A DNA stretch of 64,000 nucleotides from an uncultured bacterium (GTDB lineage Bacteria > Patescibacteriota > Doudnabacteria > UBA920), in contig CAVVMJ010000003.1 of the NCBI GenBank assembly GCA_963749445.1, forward strand, positions 715-64,714, written 5' to 3'. Position numbers and translations under genes: made by a program. Positions 1,110 through 62,939 of this stretch are shown piece after piece. The notes under the pieces are model-generated. The model was not told the origin of the DNA and made no database searches. It worked only from the letters and a program-made list of their open reading frames with translations. Position 1 is the stretch's first letter. Each line of letters begins with the position of its first letter.

Positions 1110-1818
1110 TAATTTATGATATTGAAATTTTATCTCTGGCCATTTTTTGCCCTCTGCCTGGCGGTCGTGATTATCGGGCAACCGAAGCGACCATAAAAAA
1201 ATTTTGTTTTTGTTTGGATATTTATTTTAAGCCTCCAACTTTTTGACTATTGTGAGATTACAGGAACCGCACCCCGGACAGGAAATAATATCCAGGTCAA
1301 AGGTTTCCTCTTTGGTGGCAGTCCAGGAGTTGCGGCACCTTGGACAGGTAATCTCGTAGACAAACTGGGCAGTCATAATTTTCATAGTGGATAAAGTTAA
1401 GAATTAAAGAAAGATTTTTGTTTTTGTTTTTATGTTTGTTAGACCATTTGCTTTACAGCGATATACGCGGAAACTTTCTTTCCGAAATCGTGATAGTCGC
1501 TGGATTCCGGGTCAACAGAGCTTCTCAACTCCATAAAGTAGTTGATACTTCTCTGCAGCGACGCCTTGATGATATTTGACTTCATCTCCGGCGTCAGACC
1601 CGGATTCTTGCTAACAGGCCTTGTAAACAGTCTTTTTGACTTTAGGCATATTAACTCCTTTCTTTGCTTAATTATTATGGGCGAACAGACTGGCCGAAAG
1701 TTTTAGGTGTCAAGGGATTAAAAATATTTTATGCCCAACGGGAAATAAATTATTTTTACCCTTGATCAGCCTAAAAACCGGACAGTATAATGAGAAGCCA
1801 TAAGAAGCAAAGACAGGG

Positions 1819-2208
1819 TTAAATTAAATTTTGTTCCTTAAAACTTTTATGGGATTCGCCGGTTACGATAACGTGGTCAAGCACTTCAATGCCGATCAGC
1901 TTGCCGGCATCCTTAAGGCGCTTGGTTACGGCGATATCCTCATCTGACGGCTCCAGACTCCCGCTCGGGTGATTATGGGCGAAAATAACCGCGGCAGAAT
2001 TCTTTAAGATAGCGGTTCTAAAACATTCCCTCGGGTGAATAAGACTGGTGTTGAGTGTGCCGATGCTGATAATCTCCCTGCTGATGATTTGGTTTTGGGT
2101 GTTTAAGAAAAATACGCAAAAATGTTCCTTGTCAGCTTTTCCTAAAATCTCCGCACTTGCCGGCAATCTCCAGTGGGCTGTATACGCCATCCGGCATGGC
2201 CTTAACAC
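1819..2208 (-). CDS. RadC-like JAB/MPN domain protein (UPF0758)
   Basis: AHNHPSGSLEPSDEDIAVTKRL JAMM-type motif and upstream conserved EHFCVFFLNTQN block. An overlapping out-of-frame ORF at 2132..2389 (SPLEIAGK vs SAEILGK) suggests the gene may extend to 2389 across a frameshift. Confidence 0.7.
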   Translation of the reverse strand: MLRPCRMAYTAHWRLPASAEILGKADKEHFCVFFLNTQNQIISREIISIGTLNTSLIHPRECFRTAILKNSAAVIFAHNHPSGSLEPSDEDIAVTKRLKDAGKLIGIEVLDHVIVTGESHKSFKEQNLI

Positions 2209-11188: not shown

Positions 11189-11302
11189 GTCATTCCCGCG
11201 AAGGCGAGAATCATTTAATTTGTCATTGCGAGTGCAGCCGAAGCAATCTTTTTATAGATTGCCGCGTCGGCCAGATAAAGCCCTGGCCTCCTCGCAATGA
11301 CA
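11189..11302. repeat. palindromic MITE-like repeat, family A (1.5 copies)
   Basis: gtcattcccgcgaaggcgagaatca followed by gtcattgcgagtgcagccgaagcaatc...gattgccgcgtcggcc...ggcctcctcgcaatgac. Near-identical copies at 11667-11753 and inverted at 55877-55963, with a partial copy at 24715-24770. Confidence 0.8.
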
Positions 11303-11666: not shown

Positions 11667-11753
11667 GTCATTGCGAGTGCAGCCGAAGCAATCTTTATCT
11701 TAGGATGAGATTGCCGCGTCGGCCGGATAAAGCCCCGGCCTCCTCACAATGAC
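11667..11753. repeat. palindromic MITE-like repeat, family A
   Basis: Same sequence as 11223-11301, in direct orientation. Confidence 0.8.
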
Positions 11754-11758
11754 ACTTA

Positions 11759-12445
11759 TTATTCTAATTTTTTCTTGCTAATAACAACCTGTGAAGGCCG
11801 AATGACCTTACCATTTAATTCAAACCCGGTTTGGACTTCCTCTATAATAATCCCGTCGTCCTGGTCGCTTTCCGTTTCGCGGATGGCTTCGTGGAAGTTT
11901 GGGTCGAATTTTTTGCCGATGGCTTCTATTTTCCTGACGCCCAGTTCCCCAAGCGCTTTGTCCAGCTGCATAACTATACCGTCTACGCCCATTTGCCAGT
12001 TGGCGTATTTTTTCCTGAATTCCTCTGCTCTAACCCCCTCCCCGCCCTGCGGGCGGTACTCCCCCTCAGCAAGGGGGAGAGGCTCCGCACTTATCTCTGC
12101 ATTTTCCGCGGAGCTCCCCTCCTTTTCAAGGAGGGGTGTCCCGCCTTGGCGGGACGGGGTGGTTGGAGTATATTCAGGCAGATGTTTAAGCGCCTGCTCC
12201 AGCGAATCAATCGTGGGCAACAATTTTACCACCGTAACTTCCTTGGCAAATTCCAAAAGTTCCCTGTTTTCCGCTTCCTTGCGGCGCTTATAGTTTTCAA
12301 AATCCGCGGCCGCGCGCTTCCAGCCGTTCATGGCCGAATCCAAATCGGTTTGGAGTTTTTCCAAAGTTATGTTGCCGTTTTGACTGTCATCGGCCGGCTG
12401 ATGGTTATCGGTTTGCTGGTTTTCTTCTGACATAATTGGAAACAA
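11759..12445 (-). CDS. grpE: nucleotide exchange factor GrpE (with an internal GC-rich palindromic insertion)
   Basis: GrpE N-terminal helix WKRAAADFENYKRRKEAE and C-terminal domain. A ~145-bp GC-rich multi-hairpin insertion at 12030-12175 stays in frame (PSRQGGTPLLEKEGSSAENAEISAEPLPLAEGEYRPQGGEG). Confidence 0.85.
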   Translation of the reverse strand: MFPIMSEENQQTDNHQPADDSQNGNITLEKLQTDLDSAMNGWKRAAADFENYKRRKEAENRELLEFAKEVTVVKLLPTIDSLEQALKHLPEYTPTTPSRQGGTPLLEKEGSSAENAEISAEPLPLAEGEYRPQGGEGVRAEEFRKKYANWQMGVDGIVMQLDKALGELGVRKIEAIGKKFDPNFHEAIRETESDQDDGIIIEEVQTGFELNGKVIRPSQVVISKKKLE

Positions 12446-24643: not shown

Positions 24644-24889
24644 ATTAAAGGCTGGTTGATGAAAGTATTTTAGCAGATGATAAAGCGGGAATCAAGGGCG
24701 ATAATCATCGGTAAGGGATTGCCGCGTCGCCCCTCGGATGCACTCAGGGCTCCTCGCAATGACGAACGAAATTTGGCAGGCCAATCCACCTCCGCTAAGG
24801 CTACGGCGGACAAGGTGGCCTGTACTGCATCGGGCGGATGGTATCCGCCCCTACATCCGCGCAATCTGCGACATCCGCGTATCCGCAAA

Positions 24890-27795
24890 CTACAATACCT
24901 TTTTCAAATACTGCCCCGTAAAACTCGCTTTGACTTTGACAATGTCTTCGGGCGTGCCCGCGGCCACGAGCTCGCCGCCCTTGTCCCCGCCTTCGGGGCC
25001 AAGGTCTATGACCCAGTCCGCGGTTTTGATAATGTCCAAATTGTGCTCAATCACCACCACGGTGTTGCCCTTTTCCACCAGCTTGTTTAAAACCAAAATC
25101 AATCTTTTAATGTCGGCAAAATGCAGGCCCGTGGTCGGCTCATCCAGCAAATACAAAGTCCGGCCCGTGGCCGCGCGCGAAAGTTCGGTCGCCAGTTTAA
25201 TCCTTTGCGCTTCCCCGCCGCTCAAAGTGGTGGCGTTCTGGCCCAAACACATATAGCCCAAGCCCACCTGGGACAGGGTTTCCAGTTTTTTGTGGATTTG
25301 CGGCAAATTGGCAAAAAACACTTTGGCGTCATCTACTGTCATTTCCAAGACGTCGGAAATATTTTTTTCCTTGTAATGGATTTCCAAAGCCTGTTGGTTG
25401 TAGCGCTTGCCGTGGCACTCGTCGCAGGTAATGTACACATCCGGCAAAAAATTCATTTCCACCTGGATGACGCCGTCGCCCGCGCATTTTTCGCACCGCC
25501 CGCCGCGCACGTTAAAACTGAACCGGCCGGCCCGGTAACCGCGCATCCGCGCCTCGCGCGTGTCGGAAAACAAATCGCGGATCGGCGTAAACAAACCCGT
25601 GTACGTGGCCGGATTGGAACGCGGCGTGCGGCCGATTGGCGATTGGTCAATATTTATAATTTTATCCAAATGTTCCAGCCCCAGAATTTTTTTGTGCTTG
25701 CCCGGCTCTTCCTTGCTGTTAAAAAAATAGTGGTTCAGCGCTTTGGCCAAAATTTCGTTGAGCAAAGTGGATTTGCCGCTGCCGGACACGCCGGTGACGC
25801 AAACAAATTTGCCCAGCGGAATATCCGCGTTAATATTTTTAAGGTTAAATTCCTCGGCTCCCACAATGCTGAGTTTTCTGCCGTTACCCGGGCGGCGCCG
25901 CTTGGGCACTTCTATAAATTCCTTGCCTGCCAAATACTGGCCGGTTAAACTTTTGGCGCTTTTTTGGATTTGCGGCCGGCGTGCCTTGGGCCACCAGTTC
26001 CCCGCCGTGCTTACCCGCGCCCGGCCCAATGTCCACCACCCAGTCCGCCTCGCGGATGGTTTCCTCGTCGTGCTCCACTACGATTACAGTATTACCCAAG
26101 TCGCGCAAATCTTTTAAAGTTTGCAGCAACCGACGGTTGTCGCGCTGATGCAGGCCAATGGAAGGTTCATCCAATATATAGAGCACACCGGTGAGCCCGC
26201 TGCCGATTTGCGTGGCCAGGCGGATGCGCTGCGCTTCCCCGCCGCACAAAGTATCGGCCGTTCGGTCTAAAGACAAATAAGCCAGCCCCACATTCAGCAA
26301 GAACGAAAGCCGCGCATTAATTTCCTTTAAAATCTGTTTGGATATAGTTTGGTCTTTAACGCTTAAGACTTTGGGCAAATTTTTAAAAAATTCCGCGGTT
26401 TGGTCTATGGACAGGTGGGAAACATCCACTATCCCCTCACCGCCCACGGTTACGACCAAAACTTCGGGCTTGAGGCGTTTGCCCAAACAAACCTCGCACT
26501 GGCGGACGCGCATATAATTTTCGATTTCGCTGCGCATAAATTCGGAATCGGTTTCGCTGTAGCGGCGCTGCAAGTTGGGAATGACGCCCTCAAAAGCGGT
26601 ATTCATTTCAAACTGGCCGTCGCGGGTGGAAAATTCGCCGGCCACTTTGACTTTTTTCCCGCCCGTGCCGTACAAAACCACGTCAATAATTTTTTTGGGG
26701 AGATCCTTAACCGGCGTGTTCACGGAAAATCCGTATTCTTTGGCCACGGCTTCTAAAATTCGCGAGTACCAAGACAGGCGCGAAGTGGTTTTGCTCCACG
26801 GGCGGACGGCGCCTTCGGCCAGGGTTAATTTTTGGTTGGGCATAACCAAGTCCGGCTCCACCGTGAGCTTGGTGCCCAGGCCCTTGCACTCCGGGCAGGC
26901 GCCGTGCGGGCTGTTAAAACTAAAATCGCGCGGGTCCAGCTCGTTAAGCGACATATGCCCGTCAGGACAGGCAAAATTTTGGGAGAGGGTGATTTCTTGT
27001 CCCCCTGTAGCGGCATGCCTCGGCATGCCGTCTTGTTTAGGCACGCCACGGCGTGCCTCTACATCAGATGATACCATTTTAATGGCAATCGCCATCCCAT
27101 CGCCCAAATCCAAAGCCTTTTCCAAACTCTCGGCCAACCGCGCCCGGTCTTTTTGGGAAATGATAATTCTGTCCACCACCACGTCTATGGAATGTTTTTT
27201 TTGCTTGTCCAAATTTAGCCCCTGGGCCTCGTTCAAATCCATAACCGTACCGTCCACGCGGACGCGGGCAAAACCTGCTTTTTTGATTTGTTCAAAAATA
27301 TGCTTGTGCTCGCCTTTTTGGTCGCGCACAAACGGCGCCAGGAGCATCAAGCCGGTGCCTTCGGGCAAACTCGAGCAGCTGCTCCACCATGGCCTGCGGG
27401 GTCTGGCCGGAAATTTTTTTACCGCAAACCGGGCAGTGCGGAATGCCGATGCGAGCGTACAATAATCTTAAATAGTCATAAATTTCCGTGACCGTGCCCA
27501 CGGTTGAGCGCGGATTGTGGCTGGCGGATTTTTGGTCAATGGATATTGCCGGGCTCAAACCCTCTATTTTATCCACATCAGGTTTATCCATAAGGCCGAT
27601 GAACTGGCGCGCGTAGGCGGAAAGCGATTCCACATAGCGGCGCTGGCCTTCGGCGTAAATGGTGTCAAACGCCAAAGACGACTTGCCACTGCCCGACAAG
27701 CCGGTTAACACCACTAGCTTGTTGCGCGGCAAATCCACGTCCAAATTTTTTAAATTGTGCATCCGCGCCCCGCGGATGCTTATAATGTCCTTCAT
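24890..27795 (-). CDS. uvrA: excinuclease ABC subunit A (UvrA), broken into three ORFs by two apparent homopolymer frameshifts (~27367 and ~25965), with an in-frame repeat insertion
   Basis: Three consecutive overlapping ORFs carry UvrA N-terminus ([34 protein letters not shown]), middle (Zn-finger, ABC signature) and second ABC domain ([10 protein letters not shown]...[12 protein letters not shown]). The element at 27004-27066 encodes [20 protein letters not shown]. Confidence 0.85.
27004..27066. repeat. palindromic repeat family C inserted in frame in uvrA
   Basis: ggcacgccgtggcgtgcc and ggcatgcc(c)cggcatgcc hairpins. The same element sits in frame in uvrC at 30079-30141. Confidence 0.8.
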
Positions 27796-29166: not shown

Positions 29167-31131
29167 ATGACCCAAATCCAAAATCTCTCCACCAGCGGCG
29201 GATCCGCCTTCGGCGGAAAATCCAAAATCTCAAATATCCCAAAACAGCCCGGCGTTTACCAGTTTTTGGATAAAGACGGCGGGGTTATTTATATTGGCAA
29301 GGCCAAAAATTTGCGCTCGCGCGTGGGGCAATATTTTAACGGCAGCGATGAGCGGCCCCAAATCCCCCACCTGATGAATGAGGCGGCGGATTTTAGTTAT
29401 ACCGTTGTCAATAACGAACTGGAAAGTTTGTATTTGGAAAACACTTTGATAAAACAGTATCTGCCGAAATATAACATTTTACTGCGCGACGACAAAAACT
29501 ACGCGTTCATTAAAATAGATTACTCAACCGAGATACCGCAGATTGGCTACGCAAGAAAAATAGAAAATCCGGGACTTAGCCCTAAACCCTTAGCCCTTAG
29601 CCCTAAATACTTTGGTCCCTACACCGCCGCCTACAAAATCCGCGACACACTTCATTTAATGCGCAAAATTTTTCCCTACTGCTCGGCGACAAAAGTTTCG
29701 GGAAAACCGTGTTTCCACTATCACCTGCACCGCTGCCCGGGCGTGTGCATTGGGAAAATCACGCTTGACGAGTACCGGCTGACCTTAAAAAAAATTGAGG
29801 ATTTTTTGGCCGGCAATACGGCAAAAGTCGGCAAACAGCTGCAAAGCGAAATGCGCACTGCCGCCTCCAAAAAACAGTTTGAAAAAGCCGCCCGTTTGCG
29901 CGACCAACTGAATTCGCTAAAGCTTTTACAGGAACGCCAAACCGTAATTTTAGCCAAAAAAGTGGACTGGGATATTGTGTCTTTGGCGGCTTCCGATGGT
30001 TATGCCTGCGTTAACCTGTTTAAAGTGCGCGAAGGCAAATTGCAGGACAAAGAAGATTTTGTGTACGAGATGGGCTCCGATGTAGAGGCACGCCGTGGCG
30101 TGCCTGAACAAAATGACGGCATGCCCCGGCATGCCGCTACAGAATATACATTAACATTACAAACCTTCCTTGAACAGTACTATTCGGAAGCTTCCAGCGT
30201 TCCTAAAATTATTTATACCCAATATCAGGTCCGGGAATATCGGCTCATAGAAAAACTGATCCGCTCGCGTTATGACCGCGCAGTCAAAATCATCACGCCC
30301 CAAAAAGGCAAAGCCAAAGGGTTAATCAAGCTCGGAACAGCCAACGCGCAGGAATACCTGACGAAATGGCTTTCAGATCAAGCCGGGCATTTGGACAAAA
30401 TCAACCGCGCGCTGGAAGGCCTTAAAAACGCGCTTTGTCTGGAAAAAATCCCCGAGCGGATAGAGTGTTACGACATCAGCAATATCCAGGGCACCAACGC
30501 CGTGGGCAGCATGGTGGTGTTTAAAAACGGCCTGCCGGCCAAATCCGAATACCGAAAATTTCGGATAAAAACCAAGCACACGCCTGACGATTTTGCGATG
30601 ATGCGCGAGATATTGCAAAGAAGATTTAGGCACAATTACGAATTACGCATTACGGATTCTGAAAATTCGCAATCCGCAATCCGCAATCCGCAATCTTACA
30701 ATTGGCCTCTCCCCGACCTCATTGTCATCGACGGCGGAAAAGGACAACTCTCCGCGGCGCTAGGAGCGCTGCGGAAATTTCCAATTTCCAATTTCCAATT
30801 TCCAATTATTGGCTTGGCCAAAAGGATTGAAGAAATCTTCGTTCCGGGCAAATCCGAACCCATTATTTTGCCGCACGACGATCCCGCACTCCAACTCCTC
30901 CAGCGCCTGCGCGACGAGACGCACCGTTTTGGAATTATTTTTCATCGCCAGCTCCGCTCCAAGCAGGCCGTCCGGTCAGCGCTTGATAACATCCCAGGGT
31001 TAGGCCCCAAAACCAAAAAACTGCTCAAAGCCAAATTCGGCACCGTAGCCAGCATCCGGAAAGCCGATTTAAATGATCTTGCCTCGGTTGTTGGGGATAA
31101 AATAGCGCGGAATATAAAATCAAATGTATGA
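29167..31131 (+). CDS. uvrC: excinuclease ABC subunit C (UvrC), carrying in-frame repeat insertions
   Basis: GIY-YIG N-terminus GVYQFLDKDGGVIYIGKAKNLRSRV, UvrBC domain, endonuclease V-like and HhH C-terminus. Contains repeat C (30079-30141, [21 protein letters not shown]), ATCCG-type repeats (30640-30700) and a (TTTCCAA)4 microsatellite (30778-30807). Confidence 0.93.
   Translation: MTQIQNLSTSGGSAFGGKSKISNIPKQPGVYQFLDKDGGVIYIGKAKNLRSRVGQYFNGSDERPQIPHLMNEAADFSYTVVNNELESLYLENTLIKQYLPKYNILLRDDKNYAFIKIDYSTEIPQIGYARKIENPGLSPKPLALSPKYFGPYTAAYKIRDTLHLMRKIFPYCSATKVSGKPCFHYHLHRCPGVCIGKITLDEYRLTLKKIEDFLAGNTAKVGKQLQSEMRTAASKKQFEKAARLRDQLNSLKLLQERQTVILAKKVDWDIVSLAASDGYACVNLFKVREGKLQDKEDFVYEMGSDVEARRGVPEQNDGMPRHAATEYTLTLQTFLEQYYSEASSVPKIIYTQYQVREYRLIEKLIRSRYDRAVKIITPQKGKAKGLIKLGTANAQEYLTKWLSDQAGHLDKINRALEGLKNALCLEKIPERIECYDISNIQGTNAVGSMVVFKNGLPAKSEYRKFRIKTKHTPDDFAMMREILQRRFRHNYELRITDSENSQSAIRNPQSYNWPLPDLIVIDGGKGQLSAALGALRKFPISNFQFPIIGLAKRIEEIFVPGKSEPIILPHDDPALQLLQRLRDETHRFGIIFHRQLRSKQAVRSALDNIPGLGPKTKKLLKAKFGTVASIRKADLNDLASVVGDKIARNIKSNV
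30079..30141. repeat. palindromic repeat family C inserted in frame in uvrC
   Basis: Reverse complement of 27004-27066. Because uvrA and uvrC are on opposite strands, both genes translate it to the same peptide. Confidence 0.8.
30778..30807 (+). repeat. (TTTCCAA)x4 microsatellite inside uvrC (encodes ISNFQFPI)
   Basis: Direct 7-bp tandem repeat; note it is not a multiple of 3 per unit. Confidence 0.85.
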
Positions 31132-33395: not shown

Positions 33396-33482
33396 GCCGC
33401 GGTGGTGGAATTGGCATACACGTACGTTTCAGGTACGTATGGGAGCAATCCCGTGAGGGTTCAAGTCCCTCCCGCGGCACCA
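33396..33482 (+). tRNA. tRNA-Leu(CAG), class II with long variable arm
   Basis: Acceptor GCCGCGG/CCGCGGC, anticodon stem TACGT/ACGTA with loop TTCAGGT (anticodon CAG), variable arm GGGAGCAATCCC, T arm GAGGG-TTCAAGT-CCCTC, encoded CCA. Confidence 0.7.
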
Positions 33483-33558
33483 CTTGTGCGGGGCACGCAC
33501 GTTTCAGGTACGTGTGGGAGCAATCCCGTGGAGGTTCGAGTCCTCTCCTGTACACCAA
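33483..33558 (+). other. partial tRNA-Leu-like duplicate (anticodon arm to CCA; no matching 5' acceptor or D arm)
   Basis: gcacgcacgtttcaggtacgtgtgggagcaatcccgtggaggttcgagtcctctcctgtacacca parallels the 3' two-thirds of the preceding tRNA at ~85% identity. Confidence 0.4.
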
Positions 33559-38731: not shown

Positions 38732-40727
38732 GCACCGCGACTTTCTTTTTCCCGCTTAACTTATAAATATTTTCGGCTTCCGTGCTCACCACTTTTGTCT
38801 TTCTGCCGTTGCCGCGCAGTTCCTGATAAAGAGATTTAAAAGTATGCCCGTCGTAATCCCAATCCACCGCCCAATAGTCTATAAGCACAGCAAAATTATT
38901 TTTTATCAACAACATAAGTTCAGTGCGCGACTCGTCCGCCTTTTTACCGCTGCCCAAAGGAAAATCTTCTACAATATAATTTTCTATTTTAATTTTCAGT
39001 TTTAACCCTTCAATTTCCGGTTTGGCAATTTTTAAATATGGCTTATTGAAAAACACCACTTTACCAACAAGCGGCTCCAAGTCGTCCTCGGTTTTTGCCT
39101 GTTTTAGATACTCGTAAATATCCGGCGGAATTTGTTTTGGGATAATTTCCAATTTAGTTTTTGCCGCTTTTTTTCTTTCGTTCAACAGTTCATCAAAATT
39201 GTATTCGTAATCCCAGCCCAAAAGAGTCAAATTCGCGAAACCTCCGCCCTGTAAATTTTCCGCTTCCTTGGCCAATTCTTCCGCCTTATGCGCCGCAATC
39301 GGCCTGTCCGGATAGCCGCAATACACCAATTCCATTTTGCCGTCCTCGGATTTTTTTACGCCCAAATCCTTGCGGTTTTCCATAATTTCCGCGCCGTAAA
39401 GCTTTAACACGATTTTTTGCATCTCATAAATCCGCCCTCCTCCCAAATAAATCATCTCCCTCTGATAATTCCCAATATTCTCCACCAAAAACGGTTTTGA
39501 TTTTTGTTCCACCAGTCTGCCACGCGCGACTTGAATACCAACTTTCCCTAGCTCACATCCAATCCATCGACGGTTTAAATTTTCAGCTACTGATATCGTT
39601 GTTCCTGAACCCAAGAAAAAATCTGCAACGATTCCATTTTCAGGGCACGACGCTTCAATTATTCTTTGCAAAAGTTTTTTTGGTTTCTGAGTTTGATATT
39701 CTATATATTCGGGCATTGCTGGATAAACTTGCGTAATCCTTGCCTCATCACTATCTATCCACGACCATACATCATCCATCTTTCTTCCTTCGTCAGCATA
39801 ATAACGATTTGCGTTATTGTTGCCGCTCATTCGATATTTCCTACCCTCTTCATCTGTAAACGGATAAATGGATAAGTCCTTAACCGGAACACGCACAGGG
39901 TTAAAATATCTGTTATCTCCTTTTGAATAACGAAAAATCATGTTGTGTTTTCGAGCAAAGTCTTTTTCAGGAGCGGTCCCAGCTTGAAAATGCCAAATTA
40001 TCTGATTCCTAAAATTTTCCTCTCCAAAAACCTCATCCATCATCACTTTTACATAATGCCCAACGTGCCAGTCCAAATGCGCGTAAATACTGCCATCTTC
40101 GGCCAAAAGGCGTTTCATTAGTTGCAAACGCGGGTAAAGCATATCCAAATAGCTGTCTGTGCCGCCAGCCCAGGTGTCTTTGTAGGCCAAGCGTTCTATT
40201 ACGCTCGGCTCTTTTACCAATTCCAAATCCGCCGATGTTTCAGAAACATCAGCCAGTTTGATTTTGTGCGAATAGTCCGCCTTGCTGTCAAACGGCGGAT
40301 CAATGTAAATTAAATTTATTTTGCCTTCGTACCCCTGGTTTAACAGTGCCTGCATTGCCAATAAATTGTCGCCCCAAATTAGGCGGTTCATTTTTTGCTT
40401 GTCCAATTCTTCTTCCCCGATTTTGCCGTCTGTAAAAGACAAAGGCAACTGGCCTCTGTGCTCGGGATTTGGCACCACCACTTCCGCGGTCTGGAATTCA
40501 ATATCCTTGGGGTTAGGCGCGCGCTTGGGTTTGGTATCCCAAACCAGCCGGGCCGAATCCCTTTTCCTGTTAGTATTCATTTGTTGTAGCTGAGGATTTA
40601 GTGCAGCTGGAAAACAAAAAGGGCCTCCCAACCGCGAGCAACACCTTTCGATGTTACTGCGTGCTTGCGCACGCACCTCAGCTACGAGTGCGGTTAAGAG
40701 ACCGTCCTTATGTAGCTGAGGTTTCAA
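38676..40727 (-). CDS. mod: type III R-M Mod subunit (adenine-specific DNA methyltransferase)
   Basis: INLIYIDPPFDSKADY (motif IV) and C-terminal FFLGSGTTISVAENLNRRWIGCEL (motif I). Overlaps res by 56 nt. Confidence 0.85.
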   Translation of the reverse strand: MKPQLHKDGLLTALVAEVRAQARSNIERCCSRLGGPFCFPAALNPQLQQMNTNRKRDSARLVWDTKPKRAPNPKDIEFQTAEVVVPNPEHRGQLPLSFTDGKIGEEELDKQKMNRLIWGDNLLAMQALLNQGYEGKINLIYIDPPFDSKADYSHKIKLADVSETSADLELVKEPSVIERLAYKDTWAGGTDSYLDMLYPRLQLMKRLLAEDGSIYAHLDWHVGHYVKVMMDEVFGEENFRNQIIWHFQAGTAPEKDFARKHNMIFRYSKGDNRYFNPVRVPVKDLSIYPFTDEEGRKYRMSGNNNANRYYADEGRKMDDVWSWIDSDEARITQVYPAMPEYIEYQTQKPKKLLQRIIEASCPENGIVADFFLGSGTTISVAENLNRRWIGCELGKVGIQVARGRLVEQKSKPFLVENIGNYQREMIYLGGGRIYEMQKIVLKLYGAEIMENRKDLGVKKSEDGKMELVYCGYPDRPIAAHKAEELAKEAENLQGGGFANLTLLGWDYEYNFDELLNERKKAAKTKLEIIPKQIPPDIYEYLKQAKTEDDLEPLVGKVVFFNKPYLKIAKPEIEGLKLKIKIENYIVEDFPLGSGKKADESRTELMLLIKNNFAVLIDYWAVDWDYDGHTFKSLYQELRGNGRKTKVVSTEAENIYKLSGKKKVAVRVVDIFGNDATKILEVEI

Positions 40728-40894
40728 CCATGTCCCGCCGAAGGCGGGGTTTAGGCTTTACCCGGGGTTTTACGCCCGGGGCAATATTCTCCGCCGGAGG
40801 CGGATCCGCCTTTGGTGGAAATTGTATTTTAATTATACTACAATTAAGCCAAAAATAAAACCGCCGGTTTTAAGCAAATTTTTTGCTTGCGCAG

Positions 40895-44230: not shown

Positions 44231-44382
44231 CTTCGGCAACACATCGCCAACGCGCGGCGGACGACCACCCATCGTCCGCCGTGCATCATTTTTAAAACGC
44301 CCAAACAGGGCGTTTAATATTGTTTGATGTCTTTATGAAATTATTTTGGGAGGGTTATAAACCCTCCCCTACATTACAATAA

Positions 44383-45889: not shown

Positions 45890-47052
45890 ATGTCTTTTCA
45901 AATCGGAATCGTCGGGCTGCCAAATGTAGGAAAATCAACTCTTTTTAACGCCATTACCAAAAGCAAGGTGGAGGCGGCGAATTACCCGTTTGCCACCATT
46001 AACCCCAATGTGGGCGTAGTGGCTGTGCCGGACGAACGCTTGGCCAAACTGGCCGCGCAGGAAAAAGCGAAAAAATTGTGCCCACGGCTATTGAGTTTGT
46101 AGATATTGCCGGATTGGTCAAAGGCGCCAGCAAAGGCGAAGGCTTGGGCAACCAATTTTTAAGCCATATCCGCTCCGTTGACGCGATTTTGGAAGTGGTG
46201 AGATTTTTTGAAAATAAGGACATTATCCATGTGCAGGGCAACGTTGACCCCAAGCGCGATATGGAAACCGTTGCCATAGAACTGCAATTGGCGGATTTGC
46301 AAAACGTGGAAAATAGATTATCATCCGTCGCCCGCCAGGCCAAAAGCGGCGAACGCGACGCGATAATCAAAAAAACTGTGCTTGATAAATATCGGATGGC
46401 GCTTGAGGCCGGAGCTATGGCCAACACCGTGCATTTGACCGATGAAGAAAAAGAGCACAGTAAGGATATTGAGCTTTTGACCAACAAACCGATTATGTTT
46501 GTGGCAAATGATAAATTTGATTTGGATAAAAAATCTTTTTCATCTGCCATTCCGAGCCCTGGGATATCGGGCGAGGAATCTGTTAAAACATCTGCTAGTG
46601 ATAACAGATCCCTCCACTCGCCCTCGGATGCACTCGGGCTCGGTCGGGATGGCAAATTTATTACCATCGATGCACAACTAGAAAGCGAACTCGCGGAGCT
46701 TTCCGATGACGAACGCGCGCAGTACCTTAAAGAACTCGGCCTGCCGGAATCGGGTTTGGATAAAATCATCAAAGCCGCGTATAAAACTTTAGGGCTGATT
46801 ACCTTTATTACGGCCGGGCCAAAAGAAAGTAAGGCCTGGACCTGCCCCGCCGGTACCAAAGCTCCGCAGGCCGCGGGAATAATCCATACCGATTTTGAAA
46901 AAGGCTTTATCCGCGCCGAAGTCATCCAATGGAATAAATTATTGGAAGCCGGCGGCTACGGCCCGGCGCGGGATAAGGGTTGGCTAAGGGTTGAGGGAAA
47001 AGAATATGTGATTGCGGATGGGGATGTTGTGCACTTTAGATTTAATGTATAA
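45890..47052 (+). CDS. ychF: ribosome-binding ATPase YchF (Obg family), with an apparent frameshift at ~46085 and an in-frame repeat insertion
   Basis: [16 protein letters not shown] and FATINPNVG in the first ORF; [24 protein letters not shown] through the C-terminal TGS domain in the second. The frameshift falls in an A6 run. Insertion at ~46523-46660. Confidence 0.9.
46523..46660. repeat. composite palindromic repeat (family B) inserted in frame in ychF
   Basis: cattccgagcc...ggcgaggaatc and cagatccctccactcgccctcggatgcactcgggctcggtcgggatgg. Family B copies also at 50051-50092 and fused with family A at 24715-24770. Confidence 0.7.
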
Positions 47053-47327
47053 TTTGATATAATTCAAACAATCCTGCTCATGCAGTTTGGGCTACAGTTC
47101 AAACTCGCGGGGTTTCCAATCTTTGGAGCGCCAGAGTATTGCATCTTACGGGGTGTAATAGCGTGCGAATATTGATTGCGGTGATACTTCTTGTCTGTTT
47201 CCAGCGGAAATGCCCCGGCGTTAGGTTGGGACTACTCCCAAGTTAAATACAGGAAAGAAAAGGGTATAGGCCTCTAAAAGGCAGTAAGCCTTACATTTTC
47301 CAGTGATCACGGACGGAAATAGGCAAT

Positions 47328-47448
47328 TTCTCGACTCCAACGGGTATCGCGTCTGCGTCAAGCTCAACTCGGATGGGCTCAACGTCAACAACGATCATCC
47401 GTCCTACGGCGACAACGACAACTTGTACGTCTGCGTTGCCCGGAAGTC
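47328..47448 (+). repeat. DGR template repeat (TR)
   Basis: 121 bp matching VR at 48950-49070 (minus strand). All 16 mismatches are A in the TR. Confidence 0.85.
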
Positions 47449-47461
47449 TCATCGTTTTTTA

Positions 47462-47495
47462 AATCAGACCTACCTTTTAAAAGGTAGGTCTGATT
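47462..47495. terminator. perfect 13-bp-stem hairpin (aatcagacctacc-ttttaaaa-ggtaggtctgatt)
   Basis: Lies between the TR and the 3' end of avd. Could be a bidirectional terminator or a DGR RNA structural element. Confidence 0.5.
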
Positions 47496-47847
47496 GTTGC
47501 AGCACCTGAACTGATTTTTTCCAGCCGCCTAACATCCGGCCTATTTCATCCACCGAATCCTGAAAGAAAATATACTTTTTATTATCCATGGCCTTAATGT
47601 CTTTAGCCAGACGCATATAAATCCGCAAAATATTAAGTTTGCCGCTGGCTTTGTCCAAATATGGTAGCTTTTCCGCCTTGGGTAAGCCGGTTGCGGTAAG
47701 CAGATACTCCAAAATTTCCGTTAAAACTGTTTCGCTTTTTTGGCCTAAAGAATATCTGTCCTGCTTTGGGAAAGTTTTTAAACAAATATAAAACTCCTTG
47801 TATAAATCATACGACTTTTTAAAAATTGGAACATCAAATTCATTCAT
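47470..47847 (-). CDS. avd: DGR accessory variability determinant (Avd, four-helix-bundle/IVS-like)
   Basis: FPKQDRYSLGQKSE and DEIGRMLGGWKKS parallel bAvd PRKHGVAREMF and EVGRILGSWIARV. 125 aa, strongly basic C-terminal half. Confidence 0.75.
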   Translation of the reverse strand: MNEFDVPIFKKSYDLYKEFYICLKTFPKQDRYSLGQKSETVLTEILEYLLTATGLPKAEKLPYLDKASGKLNILRIYMRLAKDIKAMDNKKYIFFQDSVDEIGRMLGGWKKSVQVLQQSDLPFKR

Positions 47848-48843
47848 ATGAAAATCTATAAAGATGTTTTTAGCAAAATAGCTAGTGCGGAAAACCTGTT
47901 TGACTCATGGCAGGCATTCCGCAAGGGAAAGACTAAGCGCAGCGACGTAATGGCTTTTGAATTTTCATTGGAGCAAAATATTTTTGATTTGCGCGATGAA
48001 TTAAAATCAAAAAGATACAAACATGCGCCCTATTCTTCCTTTTTTATTCAAGATCCCAAACAAAGGAACATTCATAAAGCCAGTGTCCGCGACCGGCTTA
48101 TCCACCATGCCATTTTCGCCGTTCTGAACCCCATTTTTGAAGCGGCCTTTATTCCCAATTCCTTTTCCTGTCAAAAGGGCAAAGGCACGCATAAGGGAGT
48201 GGAGGCGCTTAAAAATATATTGCGCGAAGCCAGCAAAAATAACACCAAACCATGCTTTGTGCTTAAATGTGATATTAGACAGTTTTTTCATTCGGTTGAC
48301 CATGATATTTTGATTTCAATTATTGGGCAAAAGATCAAAGACCTTGATGCCATGCGGCTAATCCGAGAGATTGTGGAGAGCTTCCCTAATGGCGTGCCGA
48401 TAGGCAATTTGACCAGCCAACTGTTTGCCAATCTTTATTTAAATGAGCTCGACAGGTTTGTTAAGCACAAACTGAAAGTTCCTTTTTATGTTCGCTATAC
48501 CGATGATTTTGTTCTGGTTTCAGATTCGCCTGAAAAACTTCTATCCTTGCTGGAATGGATAAAGCTGTTTTTGCGGGAGCGGCTCAAGCTTGAGATCCAC
48601 CCGCACAAACTAACTTTACGAAAATACCATCAGGGGATTGATTTTCTTGGTTATATTCAGTTTCCCAAATTTAGGATTTTGAGGAACAAAACTAAGCAAA
48701 GAATTTTAAGGAAATCGGCCAAGGGCTTAAACGAGCAGTCCTTGCAATCGTATTTAGGGGTTCTGTCTCATTGTAATGCCTACAAGCTTGGCGAGAGTTT
48801 AAAGAACGAGTTTTGGCTGCAAAGTGAGGAGGGGAAAAAGTAA
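47848..48843 (+). CDS. DGR reverse transcriptase
   Basis: RT motifs 1-7 with YTDDFVLV (motif 5) and the DGR-diagnostic IGNLTSQLFANLYL (motif 4). 331 aa, RT domain only. Confidence 0.9.
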   Translation: MKIYKDVFSKIASAENLFDSWQAFRKGKTKRSDVMAFEFSLEQNIFDLRDELKSKRYKHAPYSSFFIQDPKQRNIHKASVRDRLIHHAIFAVLNPIFEAAFIPNSFSCQKGKGTHKGVEALKNILREASKNNTKPCFVLKCDIRQFFHSVDHDILISIIGQKIKDLDAMRLIREIVESFPNGVPIGNLTSQLFANLYLNELDRFVKHKLKVPFYVRYTDDFVLVSDSPEKLLSLLEWIKLFLRERLKLEIHPHKLTLRKYHQGIDFLGYIQFPKFRILRNKTKQRILRKSAKGLNEQSLQSYLGVLSHCNAYKLGESLKNEFWLQSEEGKK

Positions 48844-48924
48844 AAAAAATTTCGGGAAGGCTTCGCCAGAGGCGAAGCCTTGCTTTCAAGGCCTCAAAGC
48901 CTAAAGCTTCAGAGTTCCGAAGCT

Positions 48925-49779
48925 TCAAGCGATCAAAGCACGATGGGCGGACTTCCGGGCAACGCAGACGAACAAGTTGCCGCTGCCGCCGTAGGACGGA
49001 TGAGCGCCGTAGACGAAGAGCCCAGCCGAGTCGAGCCAGACGCAGACGCGATACCCGTGGGAGTCGAGAATGCGGCCCCAGTGATAGACGTTGTCGAACA
49101 GCCGCTGACCGGTGGCCTTCTGGTGAGCGAGCACCGCCTGGGAGAACACGCGCTCGTCGGCGCGTTCGTAGTCTTCGCCCAATGCCACGATGTTGTCTTC
49201 CTGCTGTTGCCAGTTGGTGCGATTCCACCGCGGGGTCATGTCGAGCAGGTAGTAGCCGGCCTCCGGCTTGCTGTCGCCGACTTCCTTGTACTGCGGCTTC
49301 AGGAACCAGTCGACGCCCGGGTAATAGTTGGGCGGGTGGCTCTTGTCGGTACCGAGCGTGGAGTGCTGGCTGCGGAACGACGCTGTCGAAGCATAAGCCA
49401 GCATCCATTTGTGCGTCCCGGCCTTGTTCTGGTAGGCACACTCCTGAATCTGGGCCATGTTCGGGCAAACCACGGTCTGTCCCTTGGGGGACGGTTGGGC
49501 GAAGGTGGTCGAGTTCTGCTCGTGCGTCACCAGACTGGTCTGGCCGAGCAGGGTGAGCGCACCAGCGAGGTCGAATGCCGGAGTCGTCAGCCGGATTGCG
49601 AGCCGGTGAACGAATTGCTGATACTCTTCCGGATAGACTCCGCTGCTATGGATTGCCAAAAGTTCGGCGTGAAGGAAACTTCCCTTCTCCAGTGCGGCTT
49701 CGGTTGCGTTGCGCATGTCTCGGATTTGACCCGGGGTTGCCGGATCGTTGCTCTTAGACGTGAGTAATGGGGTTCCCAT
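48925..49779 (-). CDS. DGR target protein (FGE-sulfatase/C-type-lectin-like fold) with C-terminal variable repeat
   Basis: C-terminus ...LDSHGYRVCVWLDSAGLFVYGAHPSYGGSGNLFVCVARKS corresponds to TR-encoded ...LDSNGYRVCVKLNSDGLNVNNDHPSYGDNDNLYVCVARKS, with TR AAC/AAT codons diversified. GC-rich relative to its neighbours. Confidence 0.85.
   Translation of the reverse strand: MGTPLLTSKSNDPATPGQIRDMRNATEAALEKGSFLHAELLAIHSSGVYPEEYQQFVHRLAIRLTTPAFDLAGALTLLGQTSLVTHEQNSTTFAQPSPKGQTVVCPNMAQIQECAYQNKAGTHKWMLAYASTASFRSQHSTLGTDKSHPPNYYPGVDWFLKPQYKEVGDSKPEAGYYLLDMTPRWNRTNWQQQEDNIVALGEDYERADERVFSQAVLAHQKATGQRLFDNVYHWGRILDSHGYRVCVWLDSAGLFVYGAHPSYGGSGNLFVCVARKSAHRALIA
48950..49070 (-). repeat. DGR variable repeat (VR)
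   Basis: See TR. The shared ggaagtc at the 3' end is the candidate IMH boundary. Confidence 0.85.
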
Positions 49780-50151
49780 TGTCAGTATCCTCTTATTCAG
49801 TTGTCAAAGCTTCCTTGGGCCGCAAGGACACGGTCTCATCTTTTTCAAAACAAGACAAGCACTTTATTATCCTTCGATTAGTGAAGGATTGTAAAGCGCA
49901 AGTCTCGTTATTTTTGAGACCTTACATTATGGCACTTTTTTTATCTCCTGTCAATATCGACAAAAAAACCATCAAATGCTATAATTTCAACACTTATCCA
50001 TTTCGAGCGAGTCAGACGAGCCGAGAAATCTGTTTAATTAAAATCAAAAACAGATCCCTCCACTCCTCGGATGCACTCGTCGGTCGGGATGGAATCTAAT
50101 TTAATACACTAATCATATTCCCCCTATGGGGGATAGAAAGGATTCCTTTCT

Positions 50152-55876: not shown

Positions 55877-55963
55877 GTCATTGCGAGGAGGCCGGGGCTT
55901 TGTCCGGTCGACGCGGCAATCTTGTCATAAGATAAAGATTGCTTCGGCTGCACTCGCAATGAC
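55877..55963. repeat. palindromic MITE-like repeat, family A (inverted copy)
   Basis: Reverse complement of 11667-11753. Sits between two paralogous C39-like genes. Confidence 0.8.
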
Positions 55964-59236: not shown

Positions 59237-62200
59237 TTACCGAGCCGGGAACCATTGGCCTTGGGGAATATAGCCAAAATTAACCTGAAAATTCCCCGAA
59301 ACGCCGGCATTGGCGATAGCCTGATTGACCATATTATTAATATTATTAGCCAAATTGCTTGGCAAAGGATTTCCAAACGAAGTTGGATTTACAATATTAG
59401 GCGCGAGGTTATTGTATGTTCCCGAGTAATTGTAATTGTTGCACGAATTGTTAACGCAGGTATTAATCGTCGTGTTGTTAAAACTATTGTTAATCGGATT
59501 AAGATTGCCTCCGGTGGATTGCGGTATAATATAAACGCTGCAGCTCGCGGACTGGCTGCCGCTGGTAACCGTGACAGAGCGGCCACCTGAGCTTGAATAG
59601 CTGGTGCTAAAACTGGCTCCGCTGCCCGAGGCGGGATTTTCCCCGCCACTCCAGGAATAGCTGCCGCTACCGCCGATTGCCATAAAAATTACGGCTTGAT
59701 TCACATTCACCGAAGACTGGCTGGCGCTGCAGCTCACAGTCTGCGCCACTGCCGGACATTGAGACTGGGCCTGGTTTTGGGCGTTAATTTGAGCCTGATT
59801 TTGGGCTTTGTTCTGGGCATCAGCTTGGCTGACATTGCTGGTGGCTGTGGCAGAGGCTGTGGCTGTTTGCGTGCCTCCGGCCGGACAGTTAACCGTAGCC
59901 GTTTGGGTGACTATGGCGGTAAAGGTCGTGGGATTTGGCTGGCTTACATTCACCGTGCCACAACTGGCTGAATGGCCGGCGTTGTCGTTTAAGGTTACCT
60001 GGAAACTGCCAGAGTTGCCGTAAGTCGCGGTTAGGCCGCTGATGTTGGAAGCGCCGGAAGCCACCAAGGTATAAGGGCTTTGGCCGCCGTTGGCGGAAAA
60101 ACTGACGCTGCCGTTGACATTAATGTTAATAGAAGAAGTTGGTTGGCAAGTTAAATTAACCGGCGCCGGACATTGAGACTGGGCCTGGTTTTGGGCGTTA
60201 ATTTGAGCCTGAGCCTGGGCTTTGCTCTGGGCATCAGCTTGGCTGACATTGCTGGTGGCCGTAGCAGACGCTGTGGCTGTTTGCGTGGAGCCGTTTGGAC
60301 AGCTAACGGTGGCCGTTTGGGTAACCGTGGCGGTAAAGGTCGTGGGATTATTGGCATTAACATAAATTGGATTGCTAGCTGCCGTAGGCGTGGAACAGAC
60401 ATTGGCGTAACCGGATTTATTTTGAACCTGACACATGATAATTTCGGCTCCCGAATTTGGCGCGGTGCAGGAAAAGTTTGCGGCCGTGCCCGTAAAGCCG
60501 GTAAAACTGTTACAGCCTGCGGGCGTGGGAATAAACGCGTTGGCCACGCCAAAATCACAGCTTACGGAAAAAACCTGTCCCGAATCAACCCTGGCCGGCG
60601 CGGTCACAATGCCAGATGAGGGAGTCATGCATACCTGATTGTTGACATTAACCATTACTGTGCCGCAACTGGCTGAATGGCCGGCGTTGTCACTTAAAGT
60701 TACCTGGAAACTGCCAGAGTTGCCGTAAGTTGCGGTCAGGCCGCTGACATTGGCACCGGGGGCGCTCAAGCTGTAATTCCCGTTGCCGCCGCTGCCTTGG
60801 AAGCTGACGCTACCGTTGACATTAATGTTAGTGGAAGAAGTCGGTTGGCAAGTTAAATTAACCGGCGCCGGACATTGAGACTGGGCCTGGTTTTGGGCGT
60901 TAATCTGCGCCTGGTTTTGGGCTTTGCTCTGGGCATCCTGTTGGCTGACATTACTTGTGGCCGTAGCAGGGGCTGTGGCTGTTTGCGTGGAACCGTTTGG
61001 ACAGCTAACGGTGGCCGTGGCCGATGCCGTGGCGGTAAAGGTCGTGGGAGCGCTAACATTGATGGCGTTACTGACCGCCGTGGGTGTGGAGCATACATTC
61101 GTATAGCCGACTTTATTTTGAATCTGGCACATTATAACTATGCTTCCCGAACCGGGCGCGGTGCAGGAAAAATTGGCGGCCGTGCCCGAAAATCCGGTAA
61201 AACTGCTACAGCCTCCTGGTGTGGGAATAAACGCGTTGGCTACCCCAAAATCACAGCTCACGTTAAATACCTGTCCGGGATCAACGTTGGCCGGCGCAAT
61301 CACGTTGCCGGACGAAGGAGCTGTGCACGCCGGAGTGTTGGGACTGACAGTCACCGTGCCGCAACTGGCTGAATGGCCGGCGTTGTCGTTAACGGAAACC
61401 GAATAACTGCCGCTGTTGTTGTATGTCGCGGTCAGGCCGCTGATGTTGGAAGCGCCGGAAGCAATCAAAGCATAAGGACTTTGGCCGCCGGTGGCGGAAA
61501 AGCTGACGCTGCCGTTGATATTAATGTTAGTGGAAGAAGTCGGCTGGCAGGATAACGGATTACTGACGGCGTTGTTAATAGTGATGCTAACCCCGTTGGA
61601 AGTCCCAATTTGCCCTAGTGAATCCGTGGCCTTAGCCGTTAAAATGTGGCTGCCGTTGGCAAAGGCAGTGGTATTCCAGGAAACGGCATAAGGCGTAACA
61701 TTGGCCGTACCCAGCGCGGTGTTGCCGTCAATAAAAAACGCGACATTAGCTATCGTGGCGCCGCTCTGCGCCGCAGCCGTTGCTGTAATGGTAGCCGAAC
61801 TGCCGGAAACCGCGGCGCCGCTGGCCGGCGAAACAATGGCCACGGTGGGCGGCATATTATTTTGCGATTGTTTGACGGTCAAATTTACGTCCGTTGCGGT
61901 CATGGAATCTGACTTTCCATCCAAGGTCGTCCAACGCGCATCGGAAAAATGCAAAGGAATGGAAACGGCGGAAGTACTGATTGATAAAGTAACCGTCACG
62001 GTTCCCAAAGTGCCGTTGGCAATAGTGTTGTTGTTCAATCCGGCTATTAAGCAAAAGAGCCTACCGCTGGAACTCGCGCAGCTGGCTGAATCGCCGGCAT
62101 CCTTGGTCGCCTGGCCGTCAGCTTTCCAGGAAATTGACGTTATATCCGCCGGATTATAATTTAAAGCAAACTGCACGCCAGCCGGTTGCTGCGGGGCGCC

Positions 62201-62404
62201 GGAAGAATTAATGTAAATATTCAAATCCACGGAACTTCCGGGCACAACGTTAGTAGCGGAATCCATAGTCAGCTGGACAGTGCTGTCGGCATGGGCTAAA
62301 GGAAAATTTTGGTGGATTTGATTAATCACAAAACCCGCCAATAATCCCGAGATAAAACAAAGGGTAAGTTTGCCTTTATTGCGGAGAAAAAAAGATAAGT
62401 TCAT
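59237..62404 (-). CDS. very large secreted repeat protein (cohesin-like N-terminal domain + 3 near-identical ~190-aa repeats + N/S-rich tail)
   Basis: Signal peptide. Three ~570-bp tandem units (~59700-61560) are almost identical at DNA level (…CQPTSSTNININGSVSF…). Confidence 0.55.
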   Translation of the reverse strand: MNLSFFLRNKGKLTLCFISGLLAGFVINQIHQNFPLAHADSTVQLTMDSATNVVPGSSVDLNIYINSSGAPQQPAGVQFALNYNPADITSISWKADGQATKDAGDSASCASSSGRLFCLIAGLNNNTIANGTLGTVTVTLSISTSAVSIPLHFSDARWTTLDGKSDSMTATDVNLTVKQSQNNMPPTVAIVSPASGAAVSGSSATITATAAAQSGATIANVAFFIDGNTALGTANVTPYAVSWNTTAFANGSHILTAKATDSLGQIGTSNGVSITINNAVSNPLSCQPTSSTNININGSVSFSATGGQSPYALIASGASNISGLTATYNNSGSYSVSVNDNAGHSASCGTVTVSPNTPACTAPSSGNVIAPANVDPGQVFNVSCDFGVANAFIPTPGGCSSFTGFSGTAANFSCTAPGSGSIVIMCQIQNKVGYTNVCSTPTAVSNAINVSAPTTFTATASATATVSCPNGSTQTATAPATATSNVSQQDAQSKAQNQAQINAQNQAQSQCPAPVNLTCQPTSSTNINVNGSVSFQGSGGNGNYSLSAPGANVSGLTATYGNSGSFQVTLSDNAGHSASCGTVMVNVNNQVCMTPSSGIVTAPARVDSGQVFSVSCDFGVANAFIPTPAGCNSFTGFTGTAANFSCTAPNSGAEIIMCQVQNKSGYANVCSTPTAASNPIYVNANNPTTFTATVTQTATVSCPNGSTQTATASATATSNVSQADAQSKAQAQAQINAQNQAQSQCPAPVNLTCQPTSSININVNGSVSFSANGGQSPYTLVASGASNISGLTATYGNSGSFQVTLNDNAGHSASCGTVNVSQPNPTTFTAIVTQTATVNCPAGGTQTATASATATSNVSQADAQNKAQNQAQINAQNQAQSQCPAVAQTVSCSASQSSVNVNQAVIFMAIGGSGSYSWSGGENPASGSGASFSTSYSSSGGRSVTVTSGSQSASCSVYIIPQSTGGNLNPINNSFNNTTINTCVNNSCNNYNYSGTYNNLAPNIVNPTSFGNPLPSNLANNINNMVNQAIANAGVSGNFQVNFGYIPQGQWFPAR
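59700..61560. repeat. three ~570-bp near-identical tandem coding repeats
   Basis: Repeated blocks are visible directly (e.g. ccggacattgagactgggcctggttttgggcgttaat at 59754, 60166 and 60868). Confidence 0.8.
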
Positions 62405-62408
62405 ATGC

Positions 62409-62939
62409 TTAAATTATAATGATATTTACTTTAGAAAGGGGCGGGCGCAAGCGGAGCTTGCGCCTCCTGGTCATTTTGGTAGCCCGCCGCGCTGCCAATA
62501 CCACCATGGCCGGCGTGTCGGCAAGGTACCGACGGCAACAGGGATATTTTTCCCCTGAGCCGTAATTCCAAGGGTTTTGGTAAGGCCGATTGCAGTTCTG
62601 GAAAATTCGACCGATACCTCGGCCACCACCCCATCTCTGATGGTTTTCTCGTCGCTTCCCGGCCTTCCCGATCAGTAGGCACTTCGTGCCATCTGCGACA
62701 GGCGAACACAACAGTTCTTTGCCTGCGTCTTTGGCCGCCTGCCCGGCGGCCACGGAGACCAAAAAGTCTTTCTGATGGGTCAACGTCCACTGCATTTCTG
62801 CAATGCCATCAGCGAAATTGGCGGAATTGTAGCTGAACACCAAATTTGTGGTACCGACACCGGGACTCAGGGTCAGGGTAGCAACCTGGCCAAACTCTGG
62901 CGCAACGGCCAATAACAAAACGACGACCAAGGTTCTCAC
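62409..62939 (-). CDS. secreted cohesin-like domain protein (C-terminal half of the ORF looks like read-through or frameshifted)
   Basis: Signal peptide plus the N-terminal domain homologous to the neighbours. The Arg/Gly-rich distal part is not protein-like. Confidence 0.4.
   Translation of the reverse strand: MRTLVVVLLLAVAPEFGQVATLTLSPGVGTTNLVFSYNSANFADGIAEMQWTLTHQKDFLVSVAAGQAAKDAGKELLCSPVADGTKCLLIGKAGKRRENHQRWGGGRGIGRIFQNCNRPYQNPWNYGSGEKYPCCRRYLADTPAMVVLAARRATKMTRRRKLRLRPPLSKVNIIII

Follow-up and report, generated by a model that had tools for sequence, protein, structure and literature searches.

A 108-nt imperfect palindrome (el1) lies in frame within ychF on a 64,000-nt stretch of contig CAVVMJ010000003.1 (hereafter the window), which comes from an uncultured bacterium of the Doudnabacteria. 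It is probably a dispersed selfish element of the REP/BIME/REPIN kind belonging to Candidatus Doudnabacteria, tolerated in a permissive loop of the YchF protein and, we infer, translated with it. A sequence-only reading of the window had described an in-frame, MITE-like insertion at this place. The observation was confirmed, and its interpretation as a dispersed-repeat copy inside ychF was supported, copies being present at unrelated, mostly non-coding loci. Coordinates of the features are collected in Table 1.

The host gene was assigned from its product, which carries the two domains of a YchF/OLA1-type ATPase (Pfam MMR_HSR1, PF01926, E 9e-24, and the C-terminal, TGS-like YchF-GTPase_C, PF06071, E 1e-34) and is similar to the solved YchF structures 1jal (H. 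influenzae YchF, E 3e-109) and 2dby (E 9e-103). Orthologues 75-86% identical to it bear the names Candidatus Doudnabacteria or Patescibacteria, and in the protein comparison P0002 proved identical to the 324-aa ORF of the gene. The gene is read as two ORFs because of a 1-nt deletion, placed at about 46060-46066 and 480 nt upstream of the insert; this broken frame had not been mentioned in the sequence-only reading. The orthologues have caggaaaagagcgaaaaaatt at the site and the window has caggaaaaagcgaaaaaatt, one base fewer (readings compared: ..gaaaagagcgaaaaaatt.. versus gaaaaagcgaaaaaatt). Were the deletion real, ychF may be non-functional in this genome, and the insert could be part of the decay of a pseudogene. 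The deletion stands out against all orthologues inspected, which favours such decay. Both halves of the gene are nevertheless otherwise intact, are 86% identical to P0001 and have kept all invariant residues; sister species have the same insert in intact alleles; and uvrA in the same window is likewise split by a single-base break (25960-26000), which points to sequencing error. Pseudogene decay is therefore unlikely. Because uvrA is similarly split by one base, the ychF break is probably an indel error of the assembly or, alternatively, a very recent mutation.

At least two single-base frameshifts are thus present in housekeeping genes of this assembly, and repeats are the classical place of misassembly, so that a repeat could have been collapsed or chimerically joined into ychF. 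This is extremely unlikely, since independent ENA, JGI, Logan and NCBI assemblies (loci P0001/L082/L083, P0034/L110, P0007/L072 and P0005/L112) carry inserts of the same family at identical codon positions, all of them in frame and all different in sequence.

el1 is located after the G4 motif of YchF (..FVAN) and before the next strand (FITIDA). Alignment of the product to 1jal was split into query residues 1-209 and 257-387, with 47 residues opposite 23 in 1jal, and the insert occupies exactly the sole stretch unaligned to the solved YchF structures. The loop was measured from '..VAN' to 'xIxIDAxxE'. It spans 39-69 nt in most of 60 measurable Doudnabacteria loci and 147 nt in the window; in residues, it is 13-23 in the Candidatus Doudnabacteria orthologues and 49 in the window, 36 of which are encoded by el1. 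The alignment of orthologues that had been proposed as a check came out in favour of an insertion: most orthologues are without it, among them the 85% identical protein P0003 (locus L080), whose loop of 66 nt lacks a GTCAT-type insert of the el1 kind. An orthologue with a segment of the same length, which was to speak against an insertion, was indeed found (P0001, 387 aa), yet its segment belongs to the same repeat family, and the insertion is therefore shared by a subclade and is not native YchF sequence. YchF proteins more than 75% identical vary from 354 to 403 residues, solely through such inserts. A neighbour-joining tree of 120 YchF proteins, built for counting gains and losses, was star-like and unresolved. 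In an AlphaFold model of mediocre quality (mean pLDDT 64.6, N-terminal domain unmodelled), insert residues 224-253 had a pLDDT below 50 and the flanks 72-86. This agrees with a disordered surface loop, as agreement and not as strong evidence.

The sequence and translation of the insert quoted in the sequence-only reading were exact. Its extent had been given as 46523-46660 (about 130 bp and 45 residues); the palindrome was recovered, with a real core of 108 nt and 36 residues, the rest being flanks. el1, whose ends read GCCATTCCGAG...CTCGGTCGGGATGGC, folds into a hairpin with a minimum free energy (MFE) of -53.3 and -54.4 kcal/mol on the two strands (z -4.7 and -5.9), which was matched by none of 200 shuffles. 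Its left unit reads AGATTCCTCGCCCGATATCCCAGGGCTCGGAATGGC and its right unit AGATCCCTCCACTCGCCCTCGGATGCACTCGGGCTCGGTCGGGATGGC. The full arms of the central stem (CTGTTA/TAACAG) lie at 46573-46585 and 46602-46614. A paired 3-nt insertion (GCC...GGC) in the right unit adds 3 bp to the stem and keeps the frame. Rfam gave no match on el1, either at gathering score (whole window) or at E <0.1 (46400-46800); when matches at E up to 1 were listed for the latter interval, they were just chance snoRNA matches and were rejected. The insert peptide had no match in the protein database at E up to 1, with 814 candidates sharing words.

About 181 units were counted in 1.55 Mb of related DNA. The unit is a hairpin of 28-48 nt, 5' (C)AGAT-NNN-TC...TC-NNN'-ATGAC 3', in which the kept structure is a 5-bp basal stem, ATNNN/NNN'AT. 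Two inverted units and a short spacer make up a doublet of 57-130 nt that can be folded as one long hairpin, with termini GTCATYCYGA...TCRGRATGAC that are often longer (TGTGTCAT...ATGACACA). Forty doublets were chosen for their termini and for folding into one long hairpin, within-unit pairing not being required. The stem triplets were fully complementary within the left unit in 39 of the 40 and within the right unit in 28 (failures were mostly mislocated triplets); between units, they were so in 2/40 for the outer and 1/40 for the inner triplets. As the stem pairs within units and rarely between them, it is the small hairpin that is conserved as a structure. Six covarying stem types were found (CCC/GGG, TCC/GGA, CCT/AGG, TCT/AGA, TTC/GAA and TGC/GCA), and the paired units differ in stem type in 38/40 doublets. 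In L086 (4376-4504), the spacer of a doublet holds three tandem copies of GTTGATCCCAAGGATA, and the doublet spacer is therefore able to expand.

One component of the palindrome, the 'family B' unit, had also been said to recur in intergenic DNA at 50051-50092 and 24715-24770. The first recurrence was verified as an 88% match (46603-46652 against 50049-50092, E 4e-7) and proved to be part of a full doublet, el2, which sits between a -10-like tataat and the rpsF start (50152) and has no counterpart at the homologous place in the rpsF leaders of L082, L110 and L111. For the second, the shared core stood and the subtype did not: it is a single unit of another stem type, which has a 15-nt exact core in common with el1, or 24/26 positions with two gaps (TCGCCC(C)TCGGATGCACTC(A)GGGCTC), and resembles the ATTGC/GCAAT copies at 11256, 11708 and 55877. 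In total, two doublets of the subfamily and four related sites were found in the window. A right-arm pattern search yielded 26 metagenome loci with 28 distinct doublets of 87-129 nt, most of them where no reading frame is open. Lengths of the non-coding doublets modulo 3 fall into all three classes (about 8-9, 4-5 and 7). No copy was found in phage records (blastn) or IMG/VR viral contigs (pattern scan).

Table 1. Features of the window and of related loci discussed in the text. Positions are those of the window unless a locus is named.
Feature	Position	Strand	Description
ychF (YchF/OLA1-type ATPase)	45890-47052	+	two ORFs: 45890-46102 and 46078-47052
ychF frameshift site	46057-46077	+	one base short against all 11/11 orthologous loci inspected
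el1	46546-46653	+	imperfect palindromic doublet, 108 nt = 36 codons, in frame; from fold and translation
el1 left unit	46546-46581	-	basal stem ATTCC/GGAAT
el1 inter-unit spacer	46582-46605	+	apical loop of the long hairpin and part of the central stem
el1 right unit	46606-46653	+	basal stem ATCCC/GGGAT, apical motif TCGGATGCACTC
el2	49997-50093	+	97-nt doublet, same subfamily as el1, rpsF leader
Single unit	24716-24763	+	ATTGC/GCAAT type, apical TCGGATGCACTC, intergenic
Doublet	11222-11301		ATTGC/GCAAT type, intergenic
Doublet	11667-11755		ATTGC/GCAAT type, intergenic, directly downstream of grpE
Doublet	55877-55963		ATTGC/GCAAT type, intergenic, between two paralogous genes
uvrC-loop occupant	30633-30694		D10-family hairpin
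uvrC-loop occupant	L071, 1387-1446		CCT/TCT doublet
uvrC-loop occupant	L066, 1801-1869		TGC doublet
Retroelement TR	47305-47448	+	
Retroelement bAvd	47470-47847	-	
Retroelement RT	47848-48843	+	IGNLTSQ motif
Retroelement target gene	48925-49779	-	VR 48950-49095
LOOT RNA (RF03000)	40640-40757	-	57 bits, above gathering score

The length of the ychF loop is a multiple of 3 in 60/60 loci, with 19 different lengths between 39 and 165 nt. Copies of the same subfamily were found in frame in tgt (tRNA-guanine transglycosylase; L093, L103) and dinB (L101), and related doublets in frame at two uvrC sites (L071, L066, L076), all of these hosts being confirmed by Pfam. The right unit in tgt and dinB is read in the same phase as in ychF, and the peptide ..SLHSSDALVGRDD recurs. 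This shared phase can be explained by the TGA in ATGAC alone, which shuts one of the three sense phases; once it was accounted for, the phase preference of the coding copies was not significant. Measured from terminus to terminus, the coding copies are mostly 3n in length (108, 102, 99, 96, 87, 60 and 57 nt). The suggestion that they might always be multiples of 3 failed for the tgt copies, which are 95 and 119 nt long and leave the host frames open; it is therefore the frame of the host that is kept, and not the length of the element.

These data bear on whether the insert reaches the mature protein. An intron- or intein-like intervening sequence would be cut out at the mRNA or protein level, leaving a mature YchF without the 36 residues. 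The long stable hairpin is typical of RNase III substrates, and intervening sequences are a known feature of the rRNA of CPR bacteria. Excision would, however, remove the constraint on the frame, and the conservation of the frame in 60/60 loops speaks against it, as do the freedom of coding copies from stops and the occurrence of non-coding copies of any length and with stops. There was no match to an Rfam intron or other family, and the insert, at 36 residues, is far below intein size and lacks intein motifs. Excision is very unlikely on these grounds.

Further hairpins were seen in frame in the window. A sliding 90-nt MFE scan was too noisy because GC varies and did no more than direct attention to grpE and uvrA. 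In grpE (12040-12170, minus strand), about five hairpins form an in-frame block (TPTTPSRQGGTPLLEKEGSSAENAEISAEPLPLAEGEYRPQGGEGV; a 191-nt segment folds at -96 kcal/mol) by which the Pfam GrpE match is split in two, and its peptide TPTTSPRQGG..LLEKEE also fills the ychF loop in P0077 and P0096. A single hairpin motif (GATGTAGAGGCACGCCGTGGCGTGCCT) lies in frame in both uvrA (26990-27060) and uvrC (30054-30130), where it encodes the same 17-residue peptide. The uvrC gene of the window carries two in-frame hairpin blocks besides the D10-family hairpin listed in Table 1. A small repeat family, TCTCCRCCRG.GGCGGATCCGCCTTYGGYGGAAA, was found at 29186-29219, 40788-40821 and 7903-7936, with one copy in frame near the uvrC N-terminus and another adjoining the LOOT RNA.

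Comparison of el1 with its counterparts in sister species showed how the element changes. In L082 (P0001), CCCTTA/TAAGGG stands in place of the central stem CTGTTA/TAACAG of the window copy, a compensatory change, and GTCAT/ATGAC in place of its termini GCCAT/ATGGC, and the encoded peptide varies freely between the two. Between the window and L110 (P0034), the right-unit stem changes from ATCCC/GGGAT to ATCTC/GAGAT, again compensatory, with both changes synonymous. The right unit of el1 is identical to that of L110 at 45/48 positions, and the right unit of el2 to the ychF-resident right unit of L082 at 38/38. Across genomes the right unit is 94-100% identical; flanking third-codon positions of ychF are only 50-56% identical. 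el1 looks mosaic, its left-unit interior being close to L082 and its right unit to L110 and L112. Pure 'junk in the loop' is a poorer fit to units conserved so far beyond neutral host sites than copying of recent date, gene conversion or selection for a nucleic-acid function.

Strong hairpins (z -3.6 to -8.7) were found in 17/60 related ychF loops and belong to at least five unrelated families. GTCAT-type hairpins are present in the window, L072, L082, L110, L005, L051, L008, L030, L052, L111 and L112, CCCCTCC-type hairpins in L002, L011, L020, L050, L065, L078 and L019, and separate types in L003, L001 and L080. With this count, a hairpin in the loop could be rejected as a trait common to the whole clade. 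The families recur in part elsewhere, the L002 hairpin also at 44348-44375 of the window, and inserts are nested in the ychF loop of P0013/L111. In L001 (10655-10700), the ychF loop consists of unit termini alone (CCCCAGATGACCGTCATCTGGATGACGGTCATCTGGGG) and may be a footprint left after the unit interiors were lost. The uvrC loop from RRFxRS to WPLPDLIxIDGG is filled by three unrelated hairpin families in three genomes (Table 1) and is, like the ychF loop, a multi-family hot spot.

The main rival to a tolerated selfish element is drawn from these comparisons. It holds that the hairpin is kept for a nucleic-acid purpose, as a protein-binding site or mRNA structure, or that the loop is a landing pad, where new hairpins insert into or convert the resident one; in either case, the insert would be more than tolerated junk. 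The variety of families among the hairpin-bearing ychF loops, the similar turnover at uvrC site 2, the conservation of units above synonymous sites, the mosaic of el1 (left unit close to L082, right unit to L110) and the nested inserts of P0013/L111 are all in its favour. Against this, about 70% of the orthologues have a loop without a hairpin, and ychF therefore needs none; the families that occupy the loop have no common sequence; repeated hits are to be expected if a gene-dense genome of 1 Mb has few sites that can take an insertion; and we know of no partner protein for the hairpin. This rival was accordingly judged improbable. Unit conservation and family turnover hint at a targeted process or a nucleic-acid function and do not require one.

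The behaviour of el1 was compared with that of Rickettsia palindromic elements (RPEs; Ogata et al., 2000, Science 290:347, summarised in PMC10969869), for which selection leaves few of the insertions in essential genes, those that preserve the frame and are located in loops (PMC10969869). Likeness was found in a palindromic repeat, about 100-150 bp long and dispersed in a small genome (el1 is 108 nt, with multiple copies), in frame in unrelated housekeeping genes (here ychF, tgt, dinB and uvrC stay open), with a conserved peptide added where the fold allows and several families coexisting. Differences were found in the host, which belongs to the CPR/Patescibacteria and not to the Alphaproteobacteria, and in the construction of el1 from two short REP-like units of unlike stem type. 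To our knowledge, the filling of one loop by different families in sister species is not known for RPEs. By analogy, el1 appears to work like an RPE and is not filed as one, its host being a CPR bacterium.

The anatomy is that of REP/BIME/REPIN sequences, which consist of short (~20-40 nt) imperfect-palindrome units with a conserved stem, here 28-48 nt, and of inverted doublets with a spacer that may form one long hairpin (PMC3116915, PMC3337134). The unlike unit types within a doublet recall the Y and Z REPs of BIMEs, most copies are extragenic, and the copies are highly conserved among themselves. Differences lie in the termini, GTCAT/ATGAC here as opposed to a GTAG-type motif, and in the copies within ychF, tgt, dinB and uvrC, which are not extragenic and some of which are presumably translated. 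A search for RAYT/Y1 transposases (tblastn with IS200 and IS608 TnpA sequences against 1.55 Mb) returned one IS200 only, in L069. It encodes a Y1 transposase of 167 aa with an HVHFL motif (1640-2143, minus strand; end hairpins CCGCAGCAAGCTGCGG) and is bracketed by CCGCAGCTTGCTGCGG hairpins, which are unrelated to the GTCAT units.

The label 'MITE-like' was upheld for a dispersed palindromic repeat and not for a MITE in the strict sense. Small size, lack of coding capacity, terminal inverted repeats, presence/absence polymorphism and occasional in-frame ORF fusion are shared with MITEs, for which Correia/NEMIS, ERIC and cyanobacterial MITEs served as comparators (reviewed in PMC10969869). No direct repeat that could be a target-site duplication was visible at the junctions of el1, el2 and the ychF copies of L082, L072, L005, L051 and L008, for which there was no close empty site, and an autonomous IS with matching ends was not found. 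The mobility of el1 is argued from presence/absence and dispersal only, because a transposase, a target-site duplication and a parent element were not found. In the literature searched, such elements are unreported in CPR/Patescibacteria, and the terminal motifs, queried as text, matched only primers. Behaviour is thus known from RPEs and anatomy from REP/BIME/REPIN sequences; in the searchable literature, neither this family nor its presence in this phylum nor loops that are multi-family hot spots were found.

Several other features of the window were recorded. The interval from ychF to rpsF holds a complete diversity-generating retroelement (47305-49779; components in Table 1), with 21/30 TR/VR differences at TR adenines; the ychF-rpsF spacer in L082 and L111 is only ~120-130 nt, too small for the cassette. 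At 33396-33543, tRNA-Leu(CAG) is accompanied, 75 nt downstream, by a 90% identical direct repeat of 50 nt of its 3' part, which an integrated element may have left behind. A 1058-residue ORF (59240-62413, minus strand) consists of ~700-nt tandem repeats that are 60-85% identical (families D1-D5).

In the preferred reading of el1 as a selfish element, copies would spread to new sites, mostly between genes, and a copy in an essential gene would survive only if the frame were kept, no stop codon were introduced and the site were a tolerant surface loop. The YchF loop between G4 and the following strand would be such a tolerant landing place. The ychF copy would be transcribed and translated with the gene, adding 36 hydrophilic, probably disordered residues with no function of their own. 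The insertion is older than the divergence of this genome from its sister species (P0001, P0034), and el1 has since evolved as a nucleic acid, by compensatory changes, paired 3-nt indels and unit exchange.

It is conceivable, though doubtful, that Doudnabacteria REP-like units use a few permissive loops of essential genes, for example in ychF, at two sites in uvrC, and in tgt, dinB and grpE, as recurrent landing pads in which the dominant family of a genome replaces or converts the residents. The units would then be strictly kept in structure, arranged in heterotypic doublets and near-identical across species, perhaps in CPR generally. If this is true, hairpin-targeted integration or gene conversion would be driven by some recognition enzyme, and the elements would, in a systematic way, be a major cause of varying protein length in ultra-small genomes. 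Streamlined CPR genomes of ~1 Mb still host thriving selfish hairpin repeats, which land in essential genes because there is little intergenic room. Such inserts mislead gene calling, domain annotation, alignment-based phylogeny and the quality control of metagenome-assembled genomes, and they provide a natural map of loops that tolerate 20-60 extra residues. The strict conservation of units beyond host synonymous sites points to some recognition machinery or function in this phylum.
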